Part shown: positions 196 through 59,537 of the stretch, piece after piece
How the letters are laid out: the number at the start of each line of letters is the position of its first letter
Numbering within the stretch: position 1 is the first letter of the stretch
Notes under the pieces: generated by a model
What the model saw: the letters and a program-made list of their open reading frames with translations, nothing else
Databases searched by the model: none
What the model was told of the DNA's origin: nothing
Program-made: the position numbers and the translations under genes
Source: an uncultured Planctomycetota bacterium
GTDB taxonomy: Bacteria > Planctomycetota > Phycisphaerae > Tepidisphaerales > Tepidisphaeraceae
Assembly (NCBI GenBank): GCA_963841915.1
Contig: CAWJEN010000006.1
Location: 672,001-736,000 of the forward strand
DNA: 64,000 bases
Direction: 5' to 3'

Positions 196-948
196 CTACT
201 CCGGGGCCCGCACGATGAGCAGGTGGTTGAACCCACGCAGGTAGAACCCTCCCTCGTCGGCGGCCTTGCGATAATTGCCCATCTCCAGCGTCTTGTTCCT
301 ACGCACGACCGCGACCCAGTCGACCGGCTCGAAGCCGCCGTTGAGCAGCAGGCCGAACAGTTCGTATCCGATCGGCCAGAACCCTTTGCCTTGGCCGCGA
401 TTGACGAAGCTGTCGCAGACGTAGACGCCCAACGTGCCACCCGGCCGCAGGATTCGGGCCGCTTCGGCAAACGTTTCGTCCATCGCCTCGTAGTACGCGT
501 CCTCGCTCGCCGGTAGCTTGCCGATGCACCGCGGGTCGTCGCTGTAGTCGATGTGAGTTCCGTAGGGCGGATCCATGAACACCAGCGACGCCTTGGCGTT
601 GTCGATCGGCAGCTTCCGCGCGTCCGCCCGCTCTATGTCGGGCCGGGTCGGTGCCAAATCAAAGCCGCGACTCTTGCGGCCCAGGTCGCGACACACGTCG
701 AGCGTCGTTCCGCTGCCGCAAAAAGGGTCGACGACGAGGCCGGTCGTCGGGCAGTAGCGCTCGACGAGATTCCAGACGACGTGGCTGGGCGTGACCCCTG
801 GATACTTCTCGTCGCCCTGGCGGCCTGTGCCGTAGTTCTGGCTCGGGTAATCCCACAGCGTCGTGACGTGCGGGCGGACCGGCGGCTTGTGCTCGCGAGC
901 GGGAGCGGGGCGATTCTGAGGATTCCGGGGCGGCGATCGGCGAGTCAT
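196..948 (-). CDS. SAM-dependent amino-methyltransferase (N4/N6 DNA methylase-like), orphan
   Basis: VVDPFCGSGTT SAM-binding motif followed by catalytic DPPY; no restriction gene adjacent. Confidence 0.8.
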   Translation of the reverse strand: MTRRSPPRNPQNRPAPAREHKPPVRPHVTTLWDYPSQNYGTGRQGDEKYPGVTPSHVVWNLVERYCPTTGLVVDPFCGSGTTLDVCRDLGRKSRGFDLAPTRPDIERADARKLPIDNAKASLVFMDPPYGTHIDYSDDPRCIGKLPASEDAYYEAMDETFAEAARILRPGGTLGVYVCDSFVNRGQGKGFWPIGYELFGLLLNGGFEPVDWVAVVRRNKTLEMGNYRKAADEGGFYLRGFNHLLIVRAPE

Positions 949-1017
949 TTGGAGCAGCGTTGGGTGAATCGTAGATCAGTGGCAACCCCGCACGCCTCCC
1001 CGCGAAAGGACCTCGCC

Positions 1018-1578
1018 ATGAACCGCCGCCTGCTTGTTGCCTCCGTCGTTGCCGCCACCGCCATTGCTTTGCAAGGCTGTGCTTCTTCCAAGCCGCAACC
1101 GGTCGACACCGAAGCGCGGTCGGCCGTCGTGACGAAGGCCCAGCAGCAGGCCAAAGTTGCCGCCGAGTTACGGGCCGACGCCAAAGCCGCCGCGAATGAA
1201 GCGGCCGCGTTGCGACTCGCCGCTGAGCGTGAACGCTCGCTCGCCGGTCAGGAGAAGTTCAACGCCAACCGTCTCATGATCGCCGCCGATGTCTACGAGA
1301 GCAACGGCGAGTCAGCCCTGATGGCGGCCGGTGCCTACGACGATTTCCTTGACCGTAATGCCTTCGAAACCGTGTCGCAGCGAGGCGAGACGCGTCTTGC
1401 CAAAGCCGCCGCCAACCGCGAAGCCGCCGCCGATCTGCTCGAATCGCGTGTGGCCCGACTGGATCGATCGCAAGACCTCGATCAGAAGGCAGGCGAGCTT
1501 GAAGGCCGAGCCCGCGCCCTCGCCGCCAAGGCGAGCGAGAACGAACAGGCCGTCCGCGTCATGACCGCGTCGCTGTAG
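1018..1578 (+). CDS. hypothetical Ala-rich coiled-coil lipoprotein
   Basis: ATG 1018 after AAGGA; signal peptide ending LQG-C; helical Ala/Glu/Arg-rich body. Confidence 0.7.
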   Translation: MNRRLLVASVVAATAIALQGCASSKPQPVDTEARSAVVTKAQQQAKVAAELRADAKAAANEAAALRLAAERERSLAGQEKFNANRLMIAADVYESNGESALMAAGAYDDFLDRNAFETVSQRGETRLAKAAANREAAADLLESRVARLDRSQDLDQKAGELEGRARALAAKASENEQAVRVMTASL

Positions 1579-1641
1579 CGGCCGAATCAGTCGGTGACAT
1601 CGACGTAGCTGCGGGCACCGTGCCCGCAGCTACGCTCGTTC

Positions 1642-2451
1642 ATGCCCACCGACCGTCCCGCCGACCAACTCCGCACCGTGACCGTCGAACGCGGCTTCAC
1701 CCGCACCGCCGCCGGCAGCGTCTTGTGGCGGCAGGGCGGCACCCTCGTGCTCTGCACCGCGGCCGTAGAACAGAAACGGCCCGGCTTCTTCCGCGACAGC
1801 CAGGCAGGCGGCTGGGTGTCGGCCGAGTACGTCATGCACCCGGCGAGCGTGAAGGGTCGCAAGGATTGGCCGGGTCTGAAGGCCGATAAGCGTGGCATCG
1901 AGATCGGCCGCCTGATCGGCCGAAGCCTCCGCGCTGCCGTCGATGCCACCAAGATCGGCCCGCACACGATCACGATCGACTGCACCGTCCTCGAAGCCGA
2001 CGGCGGCACCCGCACCGCCAGCATCTGCGGCGGCATGGTCGCCCTCGCCGACGCCCTCAAGACGCTGCCGAAAGACATGCCCGGCACGCCCCACACCGTC
2101 CGCAGCCTTCGCGGCGGCTACGACTCCGAGAGCCACACTGAAGAGCCGCCACCGGCCCTGGACCCGCGTCTGTACAAGCCCGAAGAAGCCATCGTCGCCC
2201 AGGTCGCCGCCGTCAGCGTCGGCATCTGCAACGGCACGCCGACGCTGGACCTCGACTACGTCCTCGACAGCGCCGCCGAGACGGACTTGAACGTCGTCAA
2301 GACCGATAAGGGCACGTACGTCGAGATCCAAGGAACCGCCGAAAGCGGCTTGGGCTTCACGCCGGACCAGTTGGCGAGCATGCTCAAGTTGGCAGACGAA
2401 GGCATCGCCGTTCTTCTTAAATATCAGAGTGAAACCATCAACGCGGTCTAG
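1642..2451 (+). CDS. rph: ribonuclease PH
   Basis: GWVSAEY, EIGRLIGRSLRA, IDCTVLEADGGTRTASI, LDLDY..DS.AETDLNVV, EIQGTAE motifs. Confidence 0.93.
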   Translation: MPTDRPADQLRTVTVERGFTRTAAGSVLWRQGGTLVLCTAAVEQKRPGFFRDSQAGGWVSAEYVMHPASVKGRKDWPGLKADKRGIEIGRLIGRSLRAAVDATKIGPHTITIDCTVLEADGGTRTASICGGMVALADALKTLPKDMPGTPHTVRSLRGGYDSESHTEEPPPALDPRLYKPEEAIVAQVAAVSVGICNGTPTLDLDYVLDSAAETDLNVVKTDKGTYVEIQGTAESGLGFTPDQLASMLKLADEGIAVLLKYQSETINAV

Positions 2452-3089
2452 CTGCGTCGTCGGAGCAGACAGGACGACGTAATCAGCAGCAGGCTGGCCG
2501 CGCCCGGCTCCGGCACAAACGGTGGGATGCCAACAATGACGATCGGATCGACGATGACGAAGCCGTTGCCGGGCTCCGTCCCGACCGCGTTGAAGGCCGC
2601 TCCCGGGTAGGTGACGGAGGAGCCCGGTCGAACGAGGTCAGCCTCGAGTTCGGCCTGCTCAATTGTGCCGTCAAAGGCATTAGGGTCGTAGAACAGGCCG
2701 ATGTCGACAGGCCCGAGCATCGAAAAGTCGTAGGCGGTTCCGGACGTGCCGATTGCCGTCACGCCGGTGCCGGGCGATCCCAGAACCTCGGAGAATCTTA
2801 ATGAGCCCTGCGTCGGTGATACCGAGAACGGGATAACGTCTCCCGACGCGTCGAACCCCGTGACGATCCCTAAGTCGCGAGGCAGCGCGTCACGCCGGAT
2901 GGCACCGGCATCCGAATAGAAATCAACGATGAACATGGCCCCCGTGCCGTCGAAGTACGTCCTGCCGGTCTCCGGCTCGACATAAATCGTGAGCGACTGG
3001 TCTTGCGCGTGGACCACATGGCTGGTCGTCGCGAGCGTCAGGAGCGCGAAGGTGGTAAGCAACGATCCCGTAAATGCATCTCTACCCAT
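2448..3089 (-). CDS. PEP-CTERM sorting domain protein
   Basis: signal peptide (..VVHA/QD); C-terminal VPEPGAASLLL...LLRRRS. Confidence 0.8.
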   Translation of the reverse strand: MGRDAFTGSLLTTFALLTLATTSHVVHAQDQSLTIYVEPETGRTYFDGTGAMFIVDFYSDAGAIRRDALPRDLGIVTGFDASGDVIPFSVSPTQGSLRFSEVLGSPGTGVTAIGTSGTAYDFSMLGPVDIGLFYDPNAFDGTIEQAELEADLVRPGSSVTYPGAAFNAVGTEPGNGFVIVDPIVIVGIPPFVPEPGAASLLLITSSCLLRRRS

Positions 3090-3189
3090 GTTGACAGCAT
3101 AGCGGTTTGCCGAAAGACCACAACGCCCGTTGAGGTGCGCCTTGAGACGTGGTCTCCAGAAGAGAATCATCGACCCGCTACGGTTCGGC

Positions 3190-3987
3190 GTGTCCGAGCA
3201 GTTGCCGCAGGAGCCCATCCGTTACAAGCTCACCGTCAGCTATCGCGGCACTGCGTACCACGGCTGGCAGCGGCAGATCATTCCGGGCGACGACACGGGG
3301 GCGATGGAGCTGCCGACCGTGCAGAACACGCTGCGGCTGGCGTTGCAACGTGTCGTCGGGCACCCGGTGACGCTCACGGGGGCCAGCCGGACGGATGCGG
3401 GCGTCCATGCCATCGGGCAGAAGGCGATGTTCGACACGATCAGACATCAGATTCTGCCGGAAAAGCTGCAGTTGGCGACGAACGCAAAGCTGCCGGCCGA
3501 CGTGGCGGTGACGGGCATCGAAGCCGTTCCCGGCGACTTCTCCGTCATCGGCGACACGATCGAGAAGGGGTATCGCTACTCCGTCCACAACGGCCACGAC
3601 AAGGACGTGTTCGGCGGTGACCTGTCGCTGCACGTCGCGCGGCCGATGCTCGACGCCGAAGCCATGCAAGATGCCGCCTCGCGGCTCGTCGGATCGCACG
3701 ACTTTGCCGCCTTTGCCAAACCGGGTCACGGCCGCGAGTCGACCGTCCGCACCATTACTTCCGCAATGGTCGAACGCAACGGCGATCTCGTGACGTTCAA
3801 TGTCAGCGGCACCGGGTTCCTTTGGAACCAGGTCCGCATCATGGCCGGGACGTTGCTCCGCATCGGCCTCGGCAAACGGCCGCCGAGCGATGTCGACGAC
3901 GTGCTGGCGTCACAAGATCGTCAGATCGCCGGCCCAACCGCGCCCGCGCACGGGCTGTGTCTGATGTGGATTCGGCATCGGGATTGA
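3190..3987 (+). CDS. truA: tRNA pseudouridine(38-40) synthase
   Basis: YRGTAYHGWQRQ, GASRTDAGVHA, GFLWNQVRIMAG, AGPTAPAHGL; GTG start at 3190 chosen. Confidence 0.95.
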   Translation: MSEQLPQEPIRYKLTVSYRGTAYHGWQRQIIPGDDTGAMELPTVQNTLRLALQRVVGHPVTLTGASRTDAGVHAIGQKAMFDTIRHQILPEKLQLATNAKLPADVAVTGIEAVPGDFSVIGDTIEKGYRYSVHNGHDKDVFGGDLSLHVARPMLDAEAMQDAASRLVGSHDFAAFAKPGHGRESTVRTITSAMVERNGDLVTFNVSGTGFLWNQVRIMAGTLLRIGLGKRPPSDVDDVLASQDRQIAGPTAPAHGLCLMWIRHRD

Positions 3988-4000
3988 CACCTCGCGGCCA

Positions 4001-5389
4001 TCACGACTCGGGCATCAGGCTGTCGGGGTTCTGCAGCAACTGCAGAATCGCGTTGAGCCCGCCGACGGCGGTGCCGCCGTCGATGACGCGGTGGTCGCAG
4101 GTCAGGCTCAGCGGCAAGAGCTTGCCGACGCCCATCAGGCCGCCTTTGACGACGACGCCTTCGCGGGCTCGGCCGACGGCGAGGATGGCCGCCTCCGGAT
4201 AATTCAGGATCGGCGTGGCGAATCGGCCGCCGGGGTAGGAGCCGAAGTTGCTGATCGTGAACGTGCTGCCGCGGAGTTCGCCGGCGGGGATCGAGCGGCT
4301 CCGGCACGCCGCCGCCGTCTCGGCGATGCGGCGGCCCAGTTCCATCACGCCAAGCTTCCGCGCGTCTCGAATGACCGGCACCATCAGCCCGTCGCTCGTG
4401 TCGACGGCCAGTCCAAGGTGGACCGTTTTGTGCCTGAGAATGTCGTGTTGCTCGTCGTCGACGGTCGAATTGAGCCGCACGAGGTCGGGCCCCATCTCGC
4501 CCGACAGCACGCGGGCGACGGCAGCACATACAAACGGCAGCAGCGACACCTTGATGCCCGTGGCTGCGACGAGGCGGCGACGCTGCGACTCGAGCAGCGT
4601 CACGTCGGCCTCGTCCATGACGGTGAAGTGAACCGCGCGGTCGACGCTTTCCCGCAACCGGTCGGCGATGACACGTCGCAACCCGCGGAACGGGACGTGG
4701 ATGGTGTCGCTGTCGTCGGCGGCCATGCGGGGCGAGCCGGCGAGGTCGCTTTTACCGTTGCCGTGCAGGGCGCCGGGCTTGTGCTTGGAGCCGTTGCCGC
4801 CGGTTTTGCTGACGGGCTGCGGCATGTAGGGCTGTGGTGCGGCGGCTTCGACGTCGCGGGCGACGATGCGTCCGCCGACGCCTGTGCCGCGGATGAGGCT
4901 CAGATCGACGCCGCGGTCTCGGGCGAGCTTGCGGACGGCTGGCGTGGCCTGTGGCTTGTCGCCGTGGTTGGCGGCTTCGGAAAGGGCACCGACGACGGTG
5001 CCGCCGTCTTCGCGTTTGGCGGCAGGCGCTTCCGTTGTCGTCGCGACGGCCGTCTCGGGTTCGGACCGCTCACTGGCAGCCCCGGAACGCGAAGCGTCCG
5101 CATCGGCCTTGGCTGGTGCATCAACGGAGGTGTCTGCGTAGGTGACGACGGGTTTGCCGACGGAGACCATGGTGCCTGGCTCGACGAGCAGCTTGTCGAT
5201 GACGCCGTCGCGCGGAGCCATGAGTTCGGTCTGAGCCTTGCCGGTCTCGACAAGGGCCAGTGGATCGCCTTCCTCGACGGCTGCCCCGGGCTCGACGATC
5301 CACTCGACGATCTCGCATTCCTCGAGTCCTTCGCCCAGGTCAGGCAGAAGGAAGTCGTTACCGTCAAAGACGTCGCCGGGGCTTGCCAT
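4001..5389 (-). CDS. 2-oxo-acid dehydrogenase E2 (dihydrolipoamide acyltransferase)
   Basis: lipoyl domain LPDLGEGL...VETGKA; E3-binding ATPAVRKLA...GTGVGGRI; catalytic DHRVIDG. Confidence 0.93.
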   Translation of the reverse strand: MASPGDVFDGNDFLLPDLGEGLEECEIVEWIVEPGAAVEEGDPLALVETGKAQTELMAPRDGVIDKLLVEPGTMVSVGKPVVTYADTSVDAPAKADADASRSGAASERSEPETAVATTTEAPAAKREDGGTVVGALSEAANHGDKPQATPAVRKLARDRGVDLSLIRGTGVGGRIVARDVEAAAPQPYMPQPVSKTGGNGSKHKPGALHGNGKSDLAGSPRMAADDSDTIHVPFRGLRRVIADRLRESVDRAVHFTVMDEADVTLLESQRRRLVAATGIKVSLLPFVCAAVARVLSGEMGPDLVRLNSTVDDEQHDILRHKTVHLGLAVDTSDGLMVPVIRDARKLGVMELGRRIAETAAACRSRSIPAGELRGSTFTISNFGSYPGGRFATPILNYPEAAILAVGRAREGVVVKGGLMGVGKLLPLSLTCDHRVIDGGTAVGGLNAILQLLQNPDSLMPES

Positions 5390-5444
5390 GCCAGTAGCTT
5401 AACAGGGTAATCTGCCGCCTGTCAGATGATCGCCTGGTCGGAGG

Positions 5445-5587
5445 AACGCGAAGAGGCGAAGAGGCGCGCAAAGGGCGGAGGAGGTGAGAGAATGGGACCG
5501 GGAAGGTTGCACGTGTCGCTTCGAGAGGCGGCGTCTTTGAGCAGGTCTGTACCTTCGCGGGCCTTTGCTTCTTCGCTCCTTCGCGTT
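5445..5587. repeat. intergenic imperfect inverted repeat (REP/MITE-like)
   Basis: AACGCGAAGAGGCGAAGAGGC at the left end; GCTTCTTCGCTCCTTCGCGTT at the right end is its imperfect reverse complement. Confidence 0.6.
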
Positions 5588-5624
5588 TCTCTGGTTGAAG
5601 GTTGAACTTTCCTAAGCTCTCAGC

Positions 5625-6602
5625 ATGACCGAGGCCACCCCGAAGATCGTGATTCTCGATGCGTACTGCAGCAATCCGGGCGACCTTTCTTGGGAACCGT
5701 TGGCGAAGCTGGGGGATCTTGAGGTCTATGACCGGTCGACGCCTGACGAAGCGATCACGCGGGCGGCCCCGGCGACGGCGATTCTGACGAACAAGGTGCC
5801 GATCGACGATAACCTGCTGGCGGCGTCGCCGAGCGTGGTCTACGCGGGCGTGCTGGCGACGGGGTTCAACGTCGTCGACCTCGATGCGTGTCGCCGGCGG
5901 GGCGTGACGGTGACCAACATCCCGGGGTACTCGACCGAATCGACCGCGCAGCACGCCTTTGCGTTGCTGTTGGAGTTGACGAACCGTGTGGGCGAACAGG
6001 CACGCACGGCAGCAGACCGGTGGCCGACGAACAAGGACTTCAGCGTGGTCGACAAGCCGCTGATGGAGCTTGACGGCAAGACGTGCGGGGTGATCGGGTT
6101 CGGAGCGATCGGCAAGGCGTTTGCACGACGGGCGGTTGCGTTCGGCATGAACGTTCTGGCCACGACGGCCAATCCCGACAAGCACCGCCAGGCGGCGGAC
6201 GAGCTTGGTGTGCGATTCTGCGCATTGCATGAGCTTCTGGCACAGAGTGATGTCGTGAGCCTGCACTGCCCGCTGACGCCGGCGACGGAGAATCTGATCG
6301 GCGAGGCGAACCTGAGGCGAATGAAGGACGGAGCGTTGCTCGTCAACACCGGCCGCGGTCAACTTGTCGATTCTGCGGCGGTGGTCAAAGCGTTGCAGAG
6401 CGGCAAGCTCGGAGGGGCGGCGGTCGACGTGCTACGGCAGGAACCGCCGCGAGACGGCGACCCGTTGCTCGGCGCAGACGGTGTGCTCGTGACGCCGCAC
6501 GTGGCATGGGCGACGACGGCGGCGAGGCGGCGGTTGATCGACATCGTGGCCGGAAACTTCAAGGCGTTCCTCGACGGCTCGCCGCGGAACGTGGTGTCGT
6601 GA
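5625..6602 (+). CDS. D-2-hydroxyacid dehydrogenase (glycerate dehydrogenase/hydroxypyruvate reductase-like)
   Basis: NPGDLSW, GVIGFGAIG, SLHCPLT, LVNTGRG, VTPHVAWA. Confidence 0.9.
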   Translation: MTEATPKIVILDAYCSNPGDLSWEPLAKLGDLEVYDRSTPDEAITRAAPATAILTNKVPIDDNLLAASPSVVYAGVLATGFNVVDLDACRRRGVTVTNIPGYSTESTAQHAFALLLELTNRVGEQARTAADRWPTNKDFSVVDKPLMELDGKTCGVIGFGAIGKAFARRAVAFGMNVLATTANPDKHRQAADELGVRFCALHELLAQSDVVSLHCPLTPATENLIGEANLRRMKDGALLVNTGRGQLVDSAAVVKALQSGKLGGAAVDVLRQEPPRDGDPLLGADGVLVTPHVAWATTAARRRLIDIVAGNFKAFLDGSPRNVVS

Positions 6603-6734
6603 GTCGGCGAAGAACGTGCGTACGGCGTCGCAGTGGCCAGTACCGCATCGTGAGATTCAACGGGTTTTGCCGCAGGAAGCTTGCTTAAAAGTCAGCACGG
6701 CCGACGACCCGCCGACGCACTGGCGGGCTCAAAA

Positions 6735-6750
6735 TGTTCCACGTGGAACA
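6735..6750. promoter_or_regulatory. parS centromere-like site
   Basis: perfect palindrome TGTTCCACGTGGAACA matching the widespread parS consensus. Confidence 0.9.
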
Positions 6751-6810
6751 ATTTGAGTCGTCGGCGGCGTCAAAAATCTCCCGCCGCCGAGCGTGGCGAG
6801 GGTTGGCGAA

Positions 6811-6826
6811 TGTTCCACGTGGAACA
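6811..6826. promoter_or_regulatory. parS centromere-like site
   Basis: perfect palindrome TGTTCCACGTGGAACA. Confidence 0.9.
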
Positions 6827-6910
6827 TTGCCCTGATTCGCCGCCTCCACGCCCGCCGGATGTGGCCGCCGCGGCGCAGCGCGTAGGGTGCCGGCCCCTGC
6901 GAGACCCGAT

Positions 6911-7957
6911 ATGCCAGCCGAGACCGAAAACGTGAATGTCGCCGGCTTCCAGCCGTTGCTCAGCCCGGCGTCACTGTCGGCCGAGGTGCCGTTCACCGAC
7001 GCGGCCAAGCGAACGGTCGTCACCGCCCGGCGGGACATCTCGCGCGTGCTCGCCGGTGAGGACAAGCGGTTGCTGGCGGTCGTGGGTCCGTGCAGCATTC
7101 ACGATGTCGACGCTGCCGAGGCCTTTGCTGCAAAACTGGCCGATTTGGCTGAAGAAGTGAAGGAAAAAGTGCTGGTCGTGATGCGTGTCTACTTCGAGAA
7201 GCCTCGCACGACGACGGGCTGGAAGGGGCTGATCAATGACCCGTTTCTGTACAGCGATCGCGAGTTTGATCTGGAGACCGGCTTACGTGTCGCCCGCAAG
7301 TTGCTGGCCCGCGTGGCGGAGATGGGCTTGCCCGCCGGGACCGAGTTTCTCGACCCCTTCACGCCGCAGTACCTCGACGACCTCGTCAGCTGGGCGGCCA
7401 TCGGTGCCCGGACGACGGAGAGCCAGACGCACCGCCAGATGGCCAGCGGACTCTCCATGCCGGTCGGCTTCAAAAATGCGACGACGGGTGACGTGCAGGT
7501 CGCCCTTGACGCGATGAAAGCGGCAGGCGGGTCACACCATTTCCTCGGCATCGATGACGACGGCCGGGCGAGCATCGTGACGACGCGAGGCAATCCGACG
7601 AGCCACGCCATTCTCCGCGGCGGCAATGAAAGGTCGAATTACGCTGAAAAAGACGTCAAAGACGCGGCCAAGCGTCTGGCAGATGCCGGTCTGCCGCCGC
7701 GGTTGATGGTCGACTGCTCACACGCCAACAGCTTCAAAAAGCATGAGAAGCAGGAGGTGGCGTTCAACAGCGTCATCGCTCAACGCAACGCCGGCAGTGA
7801 CGCGATCGTCGGCGTCATGATCGAGGCCAACCTGCACGAAGGCCGCCAGGATCTACCCGACGATCCCGACGGTCGTGGTGATCTTCGTTATGGCGTGAGT
7901 GTCACCGACGCGTGCGTCGCCTTCGAGGATCTGGCCCAGATGCTGCGAGCTGTCTGA
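6911..7957 (+). CDS. aroG: 3-deoxy-7-phosphoheptulonate (DAHP) synthase, class I-alpha (AroF/G/H type)
   Basis: GPCSIHD, RVYFEKPRTTTGWKGLINDP, IGARTTESQTHR, DCSHANS, YGVSVTDAC. Confidence 0.93.
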   Translation: MPAETENVNVAGFQPLLSPASLSAEVPFTDAAKRTVVTARRDISRVLAGEDKRLLAVVGPCSIHDVDAAEAFAAKLADLAEEVKEKVLVVMRVYFEKPRTTTGWKGLINDPFLYSDREFDLETGLRVARKLLARVAEMGLPAGTEFLDPFTPQYLDDLVSWAAIGARTTESQTHRQMASGLSMPVGFKNATTGDVQVALDAMKAAGGSHHFLGIDDDGRASIVTTRGNPTSHAILRGGNERSNYAEKDVKDAAKRLADAGLPPRLMVDCSHANSFKKHEKQEVAFNSVIAQRNAGSDAIVGVMIEANLHEGRQDLPDDPDGRGDLRYGVSVTDACVAFEDLAQMLRAV

Positions 7958-8009
7958 GGAGCACTGCAGAGCAAAGACTTCGGAGCTTCCGCACCGGTCG
8001 TGCCCAGGC

Positions 8010-8025
8010 TGTTCCACGTGGAACT
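8010..8025. promoter_or_regulatory. parS site (15/16 match)
   Basis: TGTTCCACGTGGAACT between the convergent aroG and aspS stops. Confidence 0.8.
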
Positions 8026-8033
8026 CTCGCCGC

Positions 8034-9878
8034 TTACGGGTGCTGTACTTTTTGCTGCATGGCGGCGAGATGGGTCGCGTCTTCGACCTCGGCAATGCTC
8101 TTGACGTGGACCTCTGCCAATGACTTGTCGTCGACTGGGGCCGGAGCTTTGCAGAGCAGGTCGGTGCCGCTCTGGGTCTTTGGAAAAGCGATGACGTCAC
8201 GAATGTTGTCGAGGCCACGCAGGAGCATGATCATCCGGTCGACGCCTAACGCGATGCCGCCATGCGGCGGGGCACCGAACTGCAGGGCGTTCAGGAGAAA
8301 TCCGAAGTTCTGCTCCTGCCGCTCTTCATCGATTCCGAGCGCGGAAAGCACCTTCTTCTGCACGTCGTAGCGGTGGATACGGATCGAACCGCCTCCAAGC
8401 TCGCTGCCGTTGACGACGATGTCGTAACCGCGGCTCATAGCGCTGAGCAGCGTCTGCTTGTCCGTGCTGCTGAGCTTGTCGACGTCTTCGTCGCTCGCCA
8501 AGGCCGTGAACGGGTGGTGGGTGTAGGTGAGCTTACCGGTCTTTTCGTCCTCTTCGAAGGCCGGGAAATCGACGACCCAGACCCACGCGAAGTCGGTCTT
8601 GGGCGCCATGGCGCGATCTTCTGCCATCTTGAGGCGAAGCTCGCCAAGGACCTTGTGCACGATGCGCGGGCGATCTGCGGCAAAGCACAGCAGGTCACCG
8701 TCGCTGGCACCGGTTCGCTCGATGACGTCCGCGGCCACAGGCTCAAGGAACTTGGCGACGCCGCTCTCGAGCTTGCCGCCGACGACCTTGGTGACCGCAA
8801 GACCTTTTGCCCCGAAGCCCTTGGCCCACTCGGCCAGCGCGTCCGTTTCCTTGCGGGTCATCGCAGCGCCGCCGGGCACGCAAAGGGCCTTGACCATGCC
8901 TGCCGTCGAGAACACCTTAAAATCGGTCTTCTGCCCCAGGTCCGTCAGGTCGAACAGCGGCATATCGAACCGCAGGTCCGGCCGGTCGCTGCCGTACTTG
9001 GTAACGGCTTCGTGATACGTCATGTGCGGAATCTCCGCCGGCACTTCGACGCCGATTGTTTCCTTCCAGACGCTCCGCACGACTGCCTCGGTCACACGCA
9101 TGACGTCTTCCTGCGTCACAAACGACATCTCCAGGTCGAGCTGCGTGAACTCTGCCTGCCGGTCGGCCCGCGGGTCTTCGTCGCGGAAGCAGCGGGCAAT
9201 CTGCATGTACTTGTCACAGCCACCGACCATCAGGATCTGTTTAAAAATCTGAGGACTTTGCGGCAACGCGTAGAAGCTGCCCGGCACCAGGCGGCTGGGC
9301 ACGAGGAAGTCGCGCGAGCCTTCGGGCGTTGCACGCGTCAGGCACGGCGTCTCGACCTCGAGGAAACCTTCTTCGTCGAGAACGCGGCGGATGACCTGCA
9401 ACGCCTTGCTCCGAACGCGCAGCGTTTCCTGCATCGTCGGACGACGCATATCGATGAAGCGGCTCTCCAGGCGACGTTCTTCGTTGACCTTCGTATCGCC
9501 GACCTGGAACGGCGGCGTCGGTGACTCGCTGTAGACGGTCAGGCTCTTGGCCATGATCTCGATGTCGCCGGTCGCAAGCTTCTCGTTCTTCTTATCTTCG
9601 TCTGCCTTGCCGGCCCGCTTGATGACCTTCCCTTCGACGCCGATGCACCATTCGGTGCGGAGCCGGCGAGCCTCTTCAAGCATGGCTTCACCGCACAGTT
9701 CGACGTCGAAGGTGATCTGCGTAATGCCTTCGCGATCTCGGAGGTCGATGAAGACGAGGTTGCCGTGGTCACGGTATTTGCCGACCCATCCGGCGAGCTT
9801 AACGCTGGTGCCGACATCGTCGACGCGGAGCTGGCCGCAGGTGTGGGAGCGGAAGGACGGCGAAAGGGCCTGGGACAT
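8034..9878 (-). CDS. aspS: aspartate--tRNA ligase (likely non-discriminating Asp/Asn)
   Basis: RSHTCGQLR, RDHG..FIDLRD (His typical of ND enzymes), ALPQSPQIFKQ, FRDEDPRADRQAEFTQLD, GAPPHGGIALG. Confidence 0.97.
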   Translation of the reverse strand: MSQALSPSFRSHTCGQLRVDDVGTSVKLAGWVGKYRDHGNLVFIDLRDREGITQITFDVELCGEAMLEEARRLRTEWCIGVEGKVIKRAGKADEDKKNEKLATGDIEIMAKSLTVYSESPTPPFQVGDTKVNEERRLESRFIDMRRPTMQETLRVRSKALQVIRRVLDEEGFLEVETPCLTRATPEGSRDFLVPSRLVPGSFYALPQSPQIFKQILMVGGCDKYMQIARCFRDEDPRADRQAEFTQLDLEMSFVTQEDVMRVTEAVVRSVWKETIGVEVPAEIPHMTYHEAVTKYGSDRPDLRFDMPLFDLTDLGQKTDFKVFSTAGMVKALCVPGGAAMTRKETDALAEWAKGFGAKGLAVTKVVGGKLESGVAKFLEPVAADVIERTGASDGDLLCFAADRPRIVHKVLGELRLKMAEDRAMAPKTDFAWVWVVDFPAFEEDEKTGKLTYTHHPFTALASDEDVDKLSSTDKQTLLSAMSRGYDIVVNGSELGGGSIRIHRYDVQKKVLSALGIDEERQEQNFGFLLNALQFGAPPHGGIALGVDRMIMLLRGLDNIRDVIAFPKTQSGTDLLCKAPAPVDDKSLAEVHVKSIAEVEDATHLAAMQQKVQHP

Positions 9879-53248: not shown

Positions 53249-55591
53249 TCACCCGGCGGGGGCGAGCTTACTGGCGGCGATGTCGAGCATCAGGGTTTTC
53301 TTGCCGAGCTTGCCGAAGTCGATCGTGATGCGGGCGTTCGTGCCGGGCGAGACGTCGAGCACCTTGCCGACACCGAACGTCGTATGGCGGAGCTTTTGCC
53401 CTGCTTTATACCGGTTGCTGATGTCGCTGGTCGGCACACTCGACCACCGCTCGCCGCTTGCACCGGGGATGCCGGTGCGGTCGATCTCTTCGAGGCATTC
53501 ACTCGGCATTTCCTTGAGAAACGGGCTCGGGACGGTTCGTTCGCGGACGCCGCGTTGCGTGCGGTATTGGGCACGGCTGAGGATGAGGTTCGACTGGGCC
53601 CTCGTGATGCCGACGAAGGCGAGGCGTCGTTCTTCTTCGAGTTCGCTGATGCTGTCGCGGGCGCGGCTGTGCGGCAGGCAGCCTTCTTCAAGCCCGACCA
53701 TCGCAACGACCGGGAATTCGAGGCCCTTGGCTGCGTGAAGCGTCATGAGCGTGACGGCGCCGCCGTTGCCTTCAAAGCGGTCGGTGTCGCTGACAAGGCT
53801 GATCTGCTGAAGGAAGTCCCCTAAGGAAGCCGGCGCATTCTCCTCCCGGCGACCTTCTTCGTACTCGGCCGCTGCGCTGACGAGCTCGTTCATGTTCTCC
53901 AGCTGCGGCTGCTCGGTCTCGCCCGCTTGCGTGTGGTGCTGCTCGAGCCCGCTTTCGCGGATCAGCCGAGTGATCAGGCCGGCCAGGGTCGCGTCATCTC
54001 CGCCTTCGGGAACGACGGTGCTGTCGGCGAAGAGGCTGCCGTCTTCGTCTGCCAGATCGTCGGTGAATGGGTTGTCGTCACTGAGTTCCGCGGGACCCGT
54101 TGCGGCGGCATCGGCGTGGAGTCGCCAGGCCTCGATCTTCTCGACGAACTTCTTCATCGAGCCCTGGGCCCGCGTGCTGACGCCGACCACTTCGTCGATG
54201 CGGGTCATTGCTTCCCAGAGCCCGATGCCGCTAGCCGTCGCCCAGGCGGTGGCGGCTTTGATGCTCGCGTCGCCGATGCCGCGGGTGGGCGTGTTGACGA
54301 TGCGGGTCAGGCTCACCTCATCGGCCGAGTTGGCGATGGCCCGCAGGTAGGCCAACACGTCCTTGATCTCACGCCTGCTGTAGAACTCGGTTCCCTTTGC
54401 GATCTGGTAAGGAATGTTGTCCCGCCGCAGAGCCGTCTCGATGACGCGCGACAGGCTGTTCATCCGGTAAAAGACAGCCATGTCGCTCCAGGCGATGCCG
54501 TCCTCGTTGTACTTGCGGAGCCGCTCAGCGACCTCGCGGGCCTCGTCGTTCTCGTCCTGGCAGGCGAGGGCGATGACCTTCTCGCCGCCGGGAATGTTGG
54601 GCACAAGCGCCTTGTCGCGTCGCTCGGTGTTGTGCTTGATGAGCTTGTCAGCGACGGCCAGAATGGTGGCGGTGCTGCGGTAGTTGACCTCCAGCTTCAC
54701 GACCGTGGCATTTGGGTAGTCGTTTTCGAAGTCGAGGATGTTCCGCAGATCCGCACCTCGCCAGGCATAAATCGACTGGTCCGGGTCGCCGACGACGCAG
54801 ATGTTCTTGTGCCGATCGGCCAGAATGTGTGCCAGGACGTACTGCGCCCGGTTAGTGTCCTGATACTCGTCGATGTGCAGGTATTGGAACTTTTGCTGAA
54901 GTTCCTTGAGAATCTCGGGCCGATCCCGCAGCCCGACGACGACACGCAGGATGAGGTCGTCGAAGTCGACGGCGTTGTTCTGCACGAGCAGCGACTCGTA
55001 CTTGAGATAGGCTTTGGCGACCGTTCGCTGGTAGAAGTCGTCGGCCACCGCGGCAAACTCGCGGGCGTTCATGAGGGCGTTCTTGGCGTTGCTGATCGCG
55101 CTGAGCACCTTGGCCGGTGGGAAGTTGGAACTGCTCGTCTCCAGCTCCTTGAGCGCCTGCTTCATCGCCCGCGTCTGGTCGGCCGTGTCGTAGATGGTGA
55201 AGTTTTTGGGAGCACCGAGCGCTTCTCCGTAGTGCCGCAGGACGCGCAGGCACAGCGAGTGGAACGTGCACAGCGTCGGCCCACGCTGGTCGAGCTGACC
55301 GAAGTCGCGGCCGCCGCGGACAATGGCATCGATGAGCGGGCGGACGCGTTCGCGCATCTCACCGGCGGCCTTGTTGGTGAAGGTGATCGCCAGCACGCTC
55401 GACGGCTCGACGCCCAGGCGAACGAGGTGAGCGACGCGTCGTGTTAAAACCCGCGTTTTTCCTGAACCGGCAGCCGCCAGGATGAGCAATGGCCCCTCCG
55501 TCGTCGTCACCGCCCGGCGTTGTTCGGGCGTCATTCCTTCCAGCAGGTCGTCCGACTCCATCCGTGGCAGGGCACTCATCGCCGCCAGCAT
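53249..55591 (-). CDS. pcrA: ATP-dependent DNA helicase PcrA/UvrD
   Basis: AAAGSGKT, TFTNKAAGEM, DEYQDTN, VGDPDQSIY, NYRST, TLHAAKGLEF, EERRLAFVGITRA; Tudor-like tail. Confidence 0.95.
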   Translation of the reverse strand: MLAAMSALPRMESDDLLEGMTPEQRRAVTTTEGPLLILAAAGSGKTRVLTRRVAHLVRLGVEPSSVLAITFTNKAAGEMRERVRPLIDAIVRGGRDFGQLDQRGPTLCTFHSLCLRVLRHYGEALGAPKNFTIYDTADQTRAMKQALKELETSSSNFPPAKVLSAISNAKNALMNAREFAAVADDFYQRTVAKAYLKYESLLVQNNAVDFDDLILRVVVGLRDRPEILKELQQKFQYLHIDEYQDTNRAQYVLAHILADRHKNICVVGDPDQSIYAWRGADLRNILDFENDYPNATVVKLEVNYRSTATILAVADKLIKHNTERRDKALVPNIPGGEKVIALACQDENDEAREVAERLRKYNEDGIAWSDMAVFYRMNSLSRVIETALRRDNIPYQIAKGTEFYSRREIKDVLAYLRAIANSADEVSLTRIVNTPTRGIGDASIKAATAWATASGIGLWEAMTRIDEVVGVSTRAQGSMKKFVEKIEAWRLHADAAATGPAELSDDNPFTDDLADEDGSLFADSTVVPEGGDDATLAGLITRLIRESGLEQHHTQAGETEQPQLENMNELVSAAAEYEEGRREENAPASLGDFLQQISLVSDTDRFEGNGGAVTLMTLHAAKGLEFPVVAMVGLEEGCLPHSRARDSISELEEERRLAFVGITRAQSNLILSRAQYRTQRGVRERTVPSPFLKEMPSECLEEIDRTGIPGASGERWSSVPTSDISNRYKAGQKLRHTTFGVGKVLDVSPGTNARITIDFGKLGKKTLMLDIAASKLAPAG

Positions 55592-55692
55592 AGCGGCGGC
55601 CCACCCGCCTGGATGTTCGGCCGCCGTCCGGGTCGCCCGCGCGCTGCGCCGCGGCGGCCAAATCGGGCCGCGGCCGGGTGGCGGGGGTCAAA

Positions 55693-55708
55693 TGTTCCAC
55701 GTGGAACA
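55693..55708. promoter_or_regulatory. parS centromere-like site
   Basis: perfect TGTTCCACGTGGAACA. Confidence 0.9.
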
Positions 55709-55778
55709 TTCGCCGACCCTTGCAACCCTCGCCAGAGGCAACGGCAAGGGTTTCCGACGCTCGCCGACGCCCCGCCAT

Positions 55779-55794
55779 TGTTCCACGTGGAACA
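55779..55794. promoter_or_regulatory. parS centromere-like site
   Basis: perfect TGTTCCACGTGGAACA. Confidence 0.9.
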
Positions 55795-55969
55795 TTTAGC
55801 TGTTTTGACTACGTCGGCGGGTGGTCCGTGGCCGGTGCTGGTGCGAACGTCGTGCGCAAAATATTGCAGACACCGCACCGGTGGCGGCGCATGGGGTACG
55901 CCGCCATGAGGCATTTCGCTCGCTGCCCTGGGGCGAACCCGCCGGCTGTGCCTGGACGAACCGGGAAGC

Positions 55970-57541
55970 GTGGTGCCTGTTCCTCTAGCCTCGCCCATGC
56001 CCGCGTCGCACCGTCAACCTGTTCACGGCCGCGACGTCGTCGCCACCAGTCAGCCGCTGGCCACCACAGCGGGGCTCGACATGCTCGGCCGAGGCGGCAA
56101 CGCGATCGACGCTGCCGTCGCGGCGGCGATTTGCCTGACCGTGACCGAGCCGACCAGCAACGGCATCGGCGGCGACCTCTTTGCCGTCCTCAACGATGGC
56201 GAACGACTCGTCGGCCTCAACGCCAGTGGCCGCTCGCCCGCGGCATGGTCCGCCGACCGCTTCGCAGGGCTCGACGCCATGCCGACCCGCGGCTGGGACA
56301 GCGTCACCGTGCCCGGCTGCGTCGCCGGCTGGCGCGATCTCAACGAGCGGTTCGGCAAGCTGCCGTTCGCCACGCTGTTCGAGCCGGCCGTCCGTCACGC
56401 CCGTGAAGGCCTTCCGGTCGGACCGATCACCGCCGCCGCCTGGCAGCGGGCGGCAAAGGTTTACGACGAACCCGCCTTTGCCGACACCTTTCTGCCCGCA
56501 CCCGCCGCCGGCGACGTCTGGCAGAGCCGGGCCCACGCGACGACCCTCGAATCCATCGCCGAGACGCAAGGCGACGCCTTCTACCGAGGCGACCTCGCTC
56601 GCCACATCATCGCCGCCAGCGATGCCGCCGGCGGGGCGATGACGCTCGACGATCTGTCGACGCACGAGAACCTCTGGTACGACGAACGCGACCTTGTCCG
56701 CGTCGACGCGTTCGGCGTCAGCCTCTACGAGATCCCGCCCAACGGCCAGGGCATCGCCGCCTGCATGGCGCTCGGCATCGCGGCGAATCTCAACTGCGAC
56801 GACTGGCAAAGCGACCGTGGGATGCACCTGCAGATCGAGGCGATGAAGCTCGCGTTCGCCGACCTGCACGCCCACGTCGCCGACGCGGATGCGATGGCGT
56901 TCGATTACAGGAAGCTCGTCGAGCCGACGTACCTCGCGGAGCGGGCGAAGCTGGTCGATATGGAGCGGGCCGCGACCTATGCCGCCGGCGTGCCGACGGC
57001 AGGTGGCACCGTCAACCTCGTCGCCTGCGACGAGAGCGGCATGATGGTCTCGCTCATCCAGAGCAACTACATGGGCTTCGGCAGCGGCATCGTCGTCCCC
57101 GGCACCGGCATCGCCATGCAGAACCGCGGAGCCGGCTTCGTCACCACGCCCGGCCACCCGAACCAGGTCGGCCCGAGCAAGCGGCCGTTCCACACGATTA
57201 TCCCCGGCTTCGTCAAGCAGGACGGCCGCCCGCTGATGCCAATGGGCTTGATGGGCGGCCCGATGCAGGCCCAAGGGCATCTGCAACTGATGCTCCGCCT
57301 CTTCGCCGGTGGCGAAGGCGTGCAACAAGCGGTCGACGCCCCACGCTGGCAGGTGATGGAAGGCCTGAAAGTCCTCGTGGAGCAGGGCGTGGACAATGCG
57401 GCTCTACAAAGTCGTGGTTATGCCGTAGAGACGGCCGACGCCCCGCATTTCGGCGGCGCCCAACTCGCCCGCCGATTGCCCGACGGCACCTACGAAGCCG
57501 CCAGCGACCCGCGGAAGGACGGCCGCGCGGGAGTCGGCTAA
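55970..57541 (+). CDS. ggt: gamma-glutamyltransferase family protein (cytoplasmic type)
   Basis: GGNAIDAAVA, GIGGDLF, TVPG, PPNGQG, G/TV nucleophile, QNRG.GF, KRPFHTIIP, SDPRKDG; start may be 55997. Confidence 0.92.
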   Translation: MVPVPLASPMPASHRQPVHGRDVVATSQPLATTAGLDMLGRGGNAIDAAVAAAICLTVTEPTSNGIGGDLFAVLNDGERLVGLNASGRSPAAWSADRFAGLDAMPTRGWDSVTVPGCVAGWRDLNERFGKLPFATLFEPAVRHAREGLPVGPITAAAWQRAAKVYDEPAFADTFLPAPAAGDVWQSRAHATTLESIAETQGDAFYRGDLARHIIAASDAAGGAMTLDDLSTHENLWYDERDLVRVDAFGVSLYEIPPNGQGIAACMALGIAANLNCDDWQSDRGMHLQIEAMKLAFADLHAHVADADAMAFDYRKLVEPTYLAERAKLVDMERAATYAAGVPTAGGTVNLVACDESGMMVSLIQSNYMGFGSGIVVPGTGIAMQNRGAGFVTTPGHPNQVGPSKRPFHTIIPGFVKQDGRPLMPMGLMGGPMQAQGHLQLMLRLFAGGEGVQQAVDAPRWQVMEGLKVLVEQGVDNAALQSRGYAVETADAPHFGGAQLARRLPDGTYEAASDPRKDGRAGVG

Positions 57542-57542
57542 C

Positions 57543-57995
57543 GTGTGGGTCAGAAGACAAAAGTCAATCCCAATTGAGGAGAGAACGCGGGAGCATGCTT
57601 CTAACGCTCGCGACGCCCCTATCCCGATTCAGCTAACTTACCGGACAAGATCAGCGAAACATGCGATAGTCTTTTCGCTGATCTTCACCAGCATTTCACA
57701 CCTATTCGCCTATCTCGCCTTTGGTTCGGCAGTTCTGCTCCAATATGGGCACAAACCGGCCCCATATGCTCCGTCAGCCGGTAACATCTTCCGCGAATTA
57801 GGCCACGTCTTCGCTGCTACGAGCTTTTGATTGACGCCGATCCTTTGTGGTATTGCTTTGATAGTCTGGCGAAGTCAGCATTCACTCCGCCGAAGGGTGT
57901 CTGCTGGGCTGGTTGCTGCAATCTCCGTAGCTCTGGCCAACACTCTGCTAATTGTTCATGATCCGTTAGGCGTGGTTTCGTGGCTTGGCGATTAA
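57543..57995 (+). pseudogene. three-TM membrane protein interrupted by in-frame TGA (57828-57830)
   Basis: the frame continues past TGA into LTPILCGIALIVW...AGLVAAISVALANTLLIVHDPLGVVSWLGD*; start uncertain. Confidence 0.5.
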
Positions 57996-58033
57996 TAATC
58001 AGCACACAACGACGATTGCGTCTAGAGGCAGAT

Positions 58034-58076
58034 TAAGGGGTCGCGAAGGCAGAAGAGACGCCCTCGCAACCCCTTA
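58034..58076. terminator. hairpin between convergent islet ORFs
   Basis: TAAGGGGTCGCGAAGGC / GCCCTCGCAACCCCTTA, 17-bp stem with 2 mismatches. Confidence 0.6.
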
Positions 58077-58092
58077 CCACGCCGTCCCCGTA

Positions 58093-58398
58093 TCACGCCG
58101 CGTCGGTCAGCTTGCTGAGCACGCGTCGCAATGCACGCTCAAAGCTGCCTCGTCCGCTGAAACGCTCGAAAGGCAGACCGGACAAACCGTTCTTGAGGTG
58201 ACGAGACTGACGTTCGTTCCAAATCGCACCATCTGCAGTTCGCAGAAGTCGTTCAGCCCGCTGTTGCGAGTTGGAGCCGTCGCCAATGTGGCCACCGTAA
58301 ACCAGCCGAACGTCCGGAGAGAGCAATTCGACAACTCGAACATACTCAAAGAAGCGGCGTCGGAGAACGCCCACGATAACAAGGTTAATCTGTTTCAT
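58093..58398 (-). CDS. hypothetical protein (weak DUF2325-like resemblance)
   Basis: ATG-started 101-aa ORF, LVIVG...Y..VVE...G...AD..I alpha/beta pattern. Confidence 0.45.
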   Translation of the reverse strand: MKQINLVIVGVLRRRFFEYVRVVELLSPDVRLVYGGHIGDGSNSQQRAERLLRTADGAIWNERQSRHLKNGLSGLPFERFSGRGSFERALRRVLSKLTDAA

Positions 58399-58442
58399 TA
58401 GGTTCGGTGGATCTCAATCCAGTATTTTTGAAGGGGATCGCT

Positions 58443-58784
58443 TCAGTTGTCCATGAGTTTGCTGAGACGTGAAGCGGTGCTTCCATTTGCGCTGGTCAAA
58501 ATGAGCAGGATGCCGCGTCCCGAGCCTCCAGCAACTGGTACATCAATGGCCGCATCCCAACCATGATCGGTGGCATATCGGGAGAAAAAGACGCGAACGC
58601 GTTCACAGAAGCGGGCGCAGACATCGCCGGTGATGCTGTTGTAGATCTTGACGGCTCGCGTTGCGTCGATGAAGACAAGGGGGGCAATCTGGTCGATACT
58701 TCTTGGGTATTGGTAGTGCATGTGTAGGGTGTCCAAGTGGATAGAGGAGTGTGGCCTTGTGTTTGCCTCTGGCTGCCTGATCAT
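58443..58784 (-). CDS. hypothetical protein
   Basis: 113-aa ORF co-oriented with 58093-58398, downstream of an AT-rich promoter-like tract. Confidence 0.35.
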   Translation of the reverse strand: MIRQPEANTRPHSSIHLDTLHMHYQYPRSIDQIAPLVFIDATRAVKIYNSITGDVCARFCERVRVFFSRYATDHGWDAAIDVPVAGGSGRGILLILTSANGSTASRLSKLMDN

Positions 58785-59537
58785 ACGAGAGGATGTTCTG
58801 GGGTCAAGCCTATAAGCATGGTGAGCGCGATCAGAACATTGATTGATATTTAATAGATAAATGTAAATTTCAGCGAGTAAAACTATGAAAATTCGATTCT
58901 ACGGAAGAAGTCGTAAAAGTCGCCACTTGTCGCGTGGTACATCAGCAACAGCAACGCCGCACCTGGCCGTCGAATAAAATCTCAGAGCGAGCAATGGGCG
59001 GGTGGGCAGGATGCTAGTCGCTGCCCAAACGGTCTGTGACGACGAGCACGTTGACATACCGGTGGGCGAACTGAGTCAGGTGCAACCCCGCTCGCGAGGC
59101 AGAGACAGGGGTCGCGAGACCGGTCGGCTTGCTGCCGGGGTGCAGGCATGGGATCGGGTCCCTTCTGTATCACCACTGCGACGCGTCGCAACGCATCAAG
59201 CTATTGGGGCGAGCTTTCACCTCCTTAAGGTGTCGTTTCACCACGTTGGCTCGGCGGGTAAGGGGTCTCGTGTCGAGGCGTTGGGGTCTCGCGCCGGGGG
59301 GTTGAGGGCTGCCTGTCTGGACATGAACCGGCGGTCATTGGTTTCGACGTCAGAAGAAGCGTGTTGTCCAGCGGGGCCGATCAACGGGCGACACTGTGCA
59401 TCGGCAGCGGTGCCGGCAGGGTGAGTATCCGGCGGTCCGATTGCGGCGGGTGGGAGGGCGGCGGTTGCCGCAGTTGGTCGGTTCAATTGGCCTATCCCGC
59501 CGCTGCCGGTAGGGTGGCGGTCGCTTGGAGGAGCTTC

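Follow-up and report, generated by a model that had tools for sequence, protein, structure and literature searches.

In the chromosomal ParABS systems described so far, up to 20-23 parS sites lie near the origin, and ectopic sites are tolerated within ~600 kb only (PMC7333895; see also PMC5815017). The residues that determine ParB specificity have been described (PMC7383237), and the ParB protein of Pseudomonas aeruginosa binds many half-parS sites (PMC5961200).

Gene transfer agents (GTAs) provide the second comparison. RcGTA packs random DNA by headful (PMC7947584). CcGTA carries 8.3 kb of DNA and shows two broad peaks (PMC9632790), while for DsGTA, which carries 4.2 kb, seven coverage peaks with no motif are reported and packaging in two directions is proposed (PMC5786225). 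The GTA TerS proteins described lack a DNA-binding domain, and the origin of the coverage peaks is left open (PMC11841831). Where processive headful packaging begins at a polar start, successive fragments are produced at falling frequency (PMC8575950). Among the open-access papers listed by a literature search there was no genome-wide parS array, no study of a planctomycete GTA and no packaging start linked to ParB.

The window, a 64-kb stretch of DNA (G000:C6:672001-736000), belongs to a genome of 3.63 Mb in six contigs, referred to here as G000; G001-G004 are congeners, and G433, G066, G137 and G223 represent other genera of the same family. The original prediction held that the window contains two diverged inverted copies of a cassette with parS pairs and a common 21-mer, and that their similarity extends past the palindromes. 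This is borne out, since all quoted strings are present at the given positions and the inner matches are found as quoted. The parS sequence TGTTCCACGTGGAACA occurs at 6735, 6811, 55693 and 55779; at up to two mismatches, the window contains six matches against 0.23 expected, a number reached in none of 100 shuffles. The prediction missed a further motif (L), a one-mismatch parS at 8010-8025, and the membership of both copies in a set of 63 distributed through the genome. The earlier observation is confirmed as real, and it is far larger than was reported.

Read in its own direction, the cassette consists of U, a linker of ~100 bp, L, parS, a spacer of 50-60 bp, a second parS, and R. U is a palindromic box, TGCGC-N3-GGCGGCCGC-N4-GCGCA, which is present at up to two mismatches in 49 of the 63 copies; it is a full palindrome and, varying by copy, is direct or inverted relative to R. 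The L motif is found at the same threshold in 54 cassettes, R (a box of U's type) in 57, and two parS in 59. The 21-mer of the original prediction is of the box type TGCGC-N16-GCGCA. The features of the two window cassettes, A and B, are as follows.

5625..6602, + strand: D-2-hydroxyacid dehydrogenase gene, upstream neighbour of A
6703..6717, + strand: L motif of cassette A (GACGACCCGCCGACG), 108 bp before the R-proximal parS
6735..6750, no strand: parS 1 of cassette A, a sequence match
6811..6826, no strand: parS 2 (R-proximal) of cassette A, a sequence match
6862..6882, + strand: R box of cassette A, of the box type found before terS and portal genes
6911..7957, + strand: DAHP synthase gene (PF00793), downstream neighbour of A
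8010..8025, no strand: satellite parS of cassette A, one mismatch, intergenic, 1199 bp to the R side
811..8311, - strand: putative first 7.5-kb packaging tract of cassette A, placed by the pooled fit, with a start at ~+1.5 kb and running toward the U side
53249..55591, - strand: UvrD/PcrA helicase gene, downstream neighbour of B
55640..55660, - strand: R box of cassette B, a match to the 21-mer of cassette A
55693..55708, no strand: parS 2 (R-proximal) of cassette B, a sequence match
55779..55794, no strand: parS 1 of cassette B, a sequence match
55812..55826, - strand: L motif of cassette B, one mismatch, 118 bp before the R-proximal parS
55997..57541, + strand: gamma-glutamyltranspeptidase gene, upstream neighbour of B
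54208..61708, + strand: putative first 7.5-kb packaging tract of cassette B, placed by the pooled fit

A recognisable U box is absent from both window cassettes (six mismatches), and both appear to have lost it. No satellite parS at up to two mismatches was found for cassette B. Around cassette A, the local raw skew favours C at 1-3 kb and G at 4-8 kb; around cassette B, on the cassette strand, it favours C at 58.5-62.5 kb and G at 55.5-58.5 kb. In G001 and G003, the D-2-hydroxyacid dehydrogenase gene abuts the DAHP synthase gene with no cassette between them. Rfam and tRNA scans of the 64-kb window found nothing.

Across the genome, 175 parS sites are present at up to two mismatches: 121 perfect, 33 with one mismatch and 21 with two. 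They form 59 pairs and a five-site cluster beside the sole parB gene, and 52 stand singly. The count of 63 cassettes was reached after a false row (C5:330926, a satellite) was removed and C5:1263410 was added by hand; it excludes the parB cluster, which contains a 64th L-parS-parS-R unit and was included as a site for the spacing test alone. The distances within the cassette step by the helical turn (~10 bp): U to L is 112-114 or 121-124, L to the second parS is 97-100, 107-109 or 118, and the second parS to R is 37-41, 48-52 or 57-59, while the phasing between the two parS is looser. The U-L linkers themselves (49 segments) are 0.447 identical, against 0.421 when shuffled. Because the linkers are no more alike than shuffled DNA, the motifs and their spacing have been kept by selection. 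The same lack of likeness, together with the absence of an Rfam match, argues against the earlier suggestion that the 21-mer forms part of a conserved RNA structure.

The genes flanking the cassettes are convergent in 25 cases, tandem in 32 and divergent in six, whereas the 543 long intergenic regions include 77 convergent and 187 divergent ones. Cassettes are therefore poor in divergent and rich in convergent gaps, which speaks against a promoter for the neighbouring gene, another role that had been proposed for the 21-mer. The statement that each copy points into a housekeeping gene is correct for A and B (DAHP synthase and UvrD/PcrA), but it does not extend to the genome, where 23 of the 63 cassettes aim R at a gene start.

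Cassettes are found on five of the six contigs with strands mixed, and their strand shows no significant relation to the replichore (28/63, p=0.06). The 59 intervals have a mean of 54 kb, a minimum of 11.3 kb and a coefficient of variation (CV) of 0.53; random intergenic placement gives a CV of 0.955+-0.113, and none of 20,000 placements was as even as that observed. Gaps also depend on orientation. Those with R facing R average 42 kb (n=18), those with U facing U 72 kb (n=13) and tandem ones 48-58 kb (n=26), the U-facing-U gaps being longer than the R-facing-R gaps (p=0.002 and 0.004). Large gaps were scanned for cassettes without parS, and none were found. The sites are not clustered near the origin: all 63 are evenly spread over the chromosome, and neither dnaA gene is on the contig of the parB cluster.

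Outside the cassettes and the parB cluster there are 45 lone parS sites at up to two mismatches. Of these, 41 lie 0.3-3.5 kb away on the R side of a cassette and none on the U side, where the chance expectation is 5.5% per side. Such a satellite is present at 39 of the 63 cassettes and absent at 24. Satellites occur both in genes and between genes and have no common flanks; those inside genes are counted as having arisen separately.

G000 encodes ParA-like proteins, SMC, ScpA and one ParB (one ParB_N match, with an LGRGL-type N-terminus), in which the Arg and Gly contacts are conserved. The parS beside parB is of the CGCTCC type in G004, of the CGCACC type in G001 and G003, and canonical in G002, and the three parS states go with three states of the ParB recognition helix. 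The 16-bp palindromes of the cassettes are thus predicted to be sites of the host ParB. Beside the parB cluster there is also a gene in two ORFs, which we take to be PurH-like (G000:C5:831059-832679 and G004 L164).

Perfect sites of the genome's own variant number 44 in G004, four in G001, one in G002 and two in G003. The 16 G004 cassettes that were read have their own parS twice, the R box, and satellites mostly on the R side; L090 and L133 also carry a G004-type cassette and are not counted as independent. The recurrence of the module in this congener, together with the 63 copies in G000, upholds the original prediction that parS was spread as a module rather than by a one-off duplication. 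Two of the 16 are orthologous with G000 cassettes, in the same position and orientation, at the 5' side of miaA and the 3' side of EF-G. These two sites are cassette-free in G001, G002 and G003, as is the DAHP site in G001 and G003. The miaA satellite occupies the same codons in both species, each with its own parS (M-F-R-V-E-H versus A-L-R-V-E-L), and the three cassette-less species differ at these codons. Because G004 has its miaA neighbour and its parS type in common with G001/G003, the cassette array is probably ancestral and was lost in the G001/G003 pair. At seven of 17 G004 cassettes, the G000 match of the flanking gene lies less than 3 kb from a G000 cassette, mostly at another intergenic gap, a pattern that may reflect local relocation, although this comparison is not a formal test. 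The DAHP site of G004 (L004:1200-1495) has a different insert of ~290 bp with an inverted REP-like pair, and G004's own parS cassette lies 3 kb from it. G001 also has, well away from parB, a single perfect palindrome of 34 bp whose core is a parS variant (L028:1490-1525).

Among 141 genomes of the family, the parS counts are 130 (G000), 70, 42 (G004), 29 and 21, with three genomes at 10 and most at 0-5; the usual state is one parS on each side of parB. The parS+R pattern, sought in 401 genomes of the class, occurs 37 times in G000 and six times in G004, with one isolated match; on a wider contig collection, the matches listed are mostly due to chance. Canonical parS counts in 40 relatives had pointed to an expansion in a single species, which is wrong, since the congeners use variant parS. 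Dispersed intergenic parS with flanks of their own are also found in G433, G066, G137 and G223 (L233-L272), possibly as separate expansions. In G433, a TGCA-extended parS has 45 matches near and none far, and the flanks also include an ACCACA...GTGG motif, which we take to resemble an NrdR box; the strict form ACCACA-N5-WGTGG has no matches near the G433 parS, although a similar motif is visible by eye.

Whether the 21-mer is confined to parS can be answered from its 51 genome matches at up to one mismatch: the core adjoins parS in 46, and five lie elsewhere. A profile scan places stand-alone R/U boxes directly before terS-terL (C6:1187148), and such boxes also stand directly before the portal, scaffold and major capsid genes (C5:844705) and before a cluster with a holin-like gene (C5:586858). 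The phage-derived genes of G000 include a terminase (phrog_2/PF17289), a portal (phrog_104/PF05133) and a capsid gene (phrog_1328/PF17236), scattered over three separate loci. For TerS (C6:1187181), the profile match is weak (phrog_1482, E=7e-4), and its position and an HTH-like alignment agree with it; the N-terminus is HTH-like in six of six aligned sequences. A sigma70-region-4-like protein (C6:1184722) is encoded at the head of the terminase cluster. Within the family, terL is present in 85 and the portal gene in 78 of 141 genomes, nearly always in single copy, and terL is 66-73% identical in the genus against an average of ~65%. Being scattered, single-copy and vertically conserved, the phage-head genes appear to be domesticated. 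Family portal matches outside the genus mostly have one in-frame stop or are in two pieces, for which a split gene, an insertion or readthrough are the alternatives.

Ahead of the portal gene, the box or its R half is present in 10 of the 11 genomes read, four of which have it two times, and in two of three more; ahead of terS it is present in five of five. Among the other-genus genomes G433, G066 and G223, only G223 pairs dispersed parS with the box, which occurs five times in 3.7 kb near these sites and not at all in 84 kb far from them. The distribution of the 21-mer is what would be expected of a site for a second factor, as originally suggested, and its place before the phage-head genes identifies it as, in all likelihood, the box of a domesticated phage-head system. 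Candidate binders are the HTH-bearing TerS or the sigma70-region-4-like protein; the box could also be purely a transcription-activator site. The idea of a composite centromere unit is right in that the unit is composite, but it is too narrow, as the sites are chromosome-wide and the second motif would belong to phage-derived packaging genes. Two further stand-alone boxes, C5:679555 and C5:615760 (L306 and L307), are followed by a C/A-rich and then a G/T-rich stretch over ~200 bp. The ORF that begins at the first box is 215 aa long and has what we take to be a phage-initiator-like motif (the profile match is weak), and the one at the second box is 29 aa long.

With all cassettes aligned in one direction, the codon-corrected strand skew favours G between -2 and +2 kb and C between -6 and -2.5 kb. 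This first-period contrast is above zero at 60 of 62 G000 cassettes and 15 of 17 G004 cassettes (flip null p=0.0025), and it is present in genes of both strands. The shift is even across sequence contexts and its substitution spectrum is that of the skew flanking dnaA; it therefore reflects a mutational process, not motif selection. A second period on the U side was predicted from the box link beforehand and then found, with windows picked after the G000 profile had been seen. In G000, the skew is +12 at -1 kb, -8.5 at -4 kb, +3.7 at -8 kb and -3.9 at -12 kb, and a damped cosine with a period of 7489+-154 bp and a decay of 7.1 kb accounts for 85% of the variance. The second-period contrast is 5.5 (5.5 and 5.4 on the two gene strands) and is seen at 44 of 60 cassettes (Wilcoxon p=7e-5); none of 2000 random site sets matches it. 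The R side has no mirror wave (contrast 1.3).

In G004, the skew runs +17, -10, +5.4, -4.9 and +5.7, giving three crests with a period of 7531+-274 bp. Here, the orientation of L163 was set from the spacer motif, L179 was added, and four of 20 loci with undefined orientation were left out of the second-period profile; the out-of-sample test of the second period is modest (7.3+-3.9, 11/16, bootstrap 0.032). Raw DNA without gene calls gives a period of 7783 bp with a wide bootstrap range (6.9-11.9 kb), and both contrasts are positive in all four halves. In G000, synonymous GC is elevated between +2 and about -20 kb, with a fall at +2 kb (49/63, p=2e-6); this rise is not seen in G004 when normalised within the same loci. 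The distance of the satellite correlates weakly with the wave centre (rho 0.24, p=0.14). Tracts of three periods would cover 38% of the genome, and they overlap by 1.5% as against 6.5+-2% with shuffled orientation (0/300).

Dispersed parS of other genera do not have such a skew (G433 -1.3+-1.9, n=20; G066 -13, n=4; G223 1.4+-4.6, n=5), and the parB loci of 20 relatives have no common local skew wave. No motif was found at the skew switch, and skew autocorrelation did not discriminate between samples of G001 and G000. Dif and DnaA-box cluster scans of G000 gave nothing clear. The two dnaA genes of G000 are at C6:371297 and C6:510373, and its genome-wide skew is weak with several switches. A ParA-like gene that lies 7 kb from dnaA is preceded by a run of about 15 eight-base repeats (G000:C6:379989-380682, L309). 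The 2.5-Mb contig C1 of G001 (L204-L223) has minus-to-plus switches near 0.3 Mb (the parB region) and 2.0 Mb (dnaA).

An explanation has to account for the anatomy, the phasing, the even spacing, the one-sided satellites, the co-variation of parS and ParB, the common box, and a damped skew wave of 7.5 kb, confined to one side, in two genomes, all of which are directly observed. On balance, it is probable that the cassettes are ParB-assisted, sequence-defined packaging starts (pac-like) for a GTA-like particle with a head of ~7.5 kb. The broader proposition, which has an even chance of being correct, is that about 60 centromere-derived packaging signals tile the chromosome, and that the ParB clamp steers a domesticated terminase to evenly spaced one-way starts. 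This would amount to a programmed, genome-covering gene transfer whose 7.5-kb headfuls are left as a fossil skew wave.

ParB would load at the twin parS, while a box-binding protein would sit on U and R in helical register. Sliding of ParB, or its bridging to the satellite, would bring in the terminase, which would cut ~1-2 kb beyond R. Packaging would then go back through the cassette toward U in two to three successive headfuls of ~7.5 kb. In recipients, both ends of the fragment would be resected to 3' tails and then recombined. A resected linear fragment would expose the bottom strand at the left and the top strand at the right. If an exposed strand loses C, as the lagging-strand template does, the left half of a headful would in the long term become C-rich and the right half G-rich, with reversals at the joints and a slightly raised GC content. 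On the data, these joints would fall near -6.5 and -13.5 kb, and the start would lie between +1 and +2 kb, which coincides with the satellites and the step down in GC. Spacing and orientation would be selected against the overlap of tracts. Because the cassette would be packed within the first headful that it starts, flanked by homology to the left and right, it would promote its own spread, and it may be maintained either by host benefit or by such a self-spreading drive. The particle itself does not need cassettes, since the sister species G001, G002 and G003 keep terL (G001 and G003 also the portal gene and the box) and none has cassettes. Packaging of the RcGTA type, non-specific and with a TerS that has no DNA-binding domain, does not appear to apply, as the imprint seems to be anchored at defined sites.

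A rather unlikely alternative is a polycentric chromosome, where the cassettes would be distributed ParB/SMC loading sites that set nucleoid loops of ~54 kb, the box protein would be a roadblock, and the phage link would be incidental. One parB, SMC and ScpA are indeed present, parS tracks ParB, the spacing is even and orientation-dependent, and the satellites lie inside the ~2-kb range of ParB spreading (PMC5815017). However, this leaves unexplained the one-sided, strand-asymmetric wave of 7.5 kb and the GC step at +2 kb. In addition, ectopic parS is harmful in Caulobacter and Pseudomonas (PMC7333895). Sister species without the array also retain SMC and ParB.

The skew switch at first resembled an origin, and inducible local replication starts, of the onion-skin or run-off amplification kind, would place that origin at the switch 2 kb to the U side; they would be turned on with the phage-derived regulon and feed packaging. 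The first switch does have the polarity of an origin and a dnaA-type spectrum, no canonical DnaA-box cluster was found in the scan, and a box stands before a short ORF (C5:679560) that we presume to have a phage-initiator-like motif, where the profile match is weak. Nevertheless, the skew has fallen to zero by ~4 kb and then changes sign two more times, all on a single side, there is no saw-tooth between cassettes and no motif at the switch, and the long-range skew centred on dnaA persists. The cassette switch is local and 2 kb off the cassette, unlike the long-range minus-to-plus switch of an oriC. Local origins are slightly less likely still than a polycentric chromosome.

A MITE or REP-type repeat that has decayed, in which U and R would be the terminal repeats and parS would be carried by chance, would suit the clean empty sites in sister species, the preference for gene 3' ends, the patchy presence and the fact that most positions differ between G000 and G004 (2/16 orthologous). 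Yet the linkers are randomised while the motifs and 10-bp phasing are kept, there is no family-wide similarity of the kind such repeats have, and the spacing is far more even than random. The satellites, which arose separately inside genes, and the kilobase-scale one-sided wave largely refute this explanation, which is very improbable. Scarcely credible, finally, is a promoter/operator or small RNA unit for adjacent genes: at the phage genes R does stand before start codons, and the window copy has a better fold than its shuffled versions (z -3.4), but this fold is due to the two palindromes, Rfam offers no match, and the neighbours have no common theme, with only 23/63 cassettes aimed at a gene start.

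If packaging starts are indeed what the cassettes are, two rules would be broken. One is that parS stays close to the origin and does harm at other places; the other is that GTAs pack without sequence signals. A chromosome-segregation clamp would be tied to DNA packaging, and the widespread domesticated phage of Phycisphaerae would have its first functional evidence, which would point from sequence alone to an active gene transfer agent. Head size and start sites would be readable from any genome, with exact predictions for GTA packaging: a fragment of 7.5 kb and a start +1 to +2 kb from R, toward U. Should the packaging reading prove wrong, the literature searched still describes no such array: 63 polar, co-evolving ParB sites at even spacing, with a periodic mutational imprint to one side.

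Compared with known systems, G000 resembles chromosomal ParABS in its canonical or variant 16-bp parS and its single parB with conserved contacts (PMC7383237), in parS on both sides of parB, as relatives also have, and in encoding ParA-like proteins, SMC and ScpA. It differs in that its 175 sites cover the whole chromosome and are arranged in polar, phased cassettes that include a second box. As in Noc/NBS of Firmicutes and the half-parS sites of P. aeruginosa, a ParB-family protein has many chromosomal sites (PMC7383237, PMC5961200). However, Noc is a paralogue distinct from ParB and has a site of its own, whereas G000 has one ParB_N match and its sites are parS; composite polar cassettes, satellites and a skew wave are absent from both of those systems.

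With RcGTA, CcGTA, DsGTA and BaGTA, G000 appears to share domesticated, scattered and vertically kept terminase, portal and capsid genes, here on the basis of sequence alone, and a predicted headful (7.5 kb) too small for its own genes, between the 4.2 kb of DsGTA (PMC5786225) and the 8.3 kb of CcGTA (PMC9632790). Its terminase has a different family setting (Planctomycetota) from known GTAs. The GTAs described (PMC7947584, PMC11841831) pack non-specifically, while ~63 sequence-defined, one-way starts built on parS are proposed for G000, whose TerS, unlike those of PMC11841831, retains an HTH-like region. The putative polar start and falling headful series would be as in phage pac sites and in lateral and generalised transduction (P22, SPP1, 80alpha; PMC8575950). 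Phage pseudo-pac sites are chance look-alikes, used by autonomous phages with heads of ~45 kb. The ~290-bp phased multi-box cassette recalls pacL/pacR of SPP1. In contrast to pseudo-pac sites, the cassettes are evenly spaced, selected and parS-bearing, and the cut would fall 1-2 kb outside the site.
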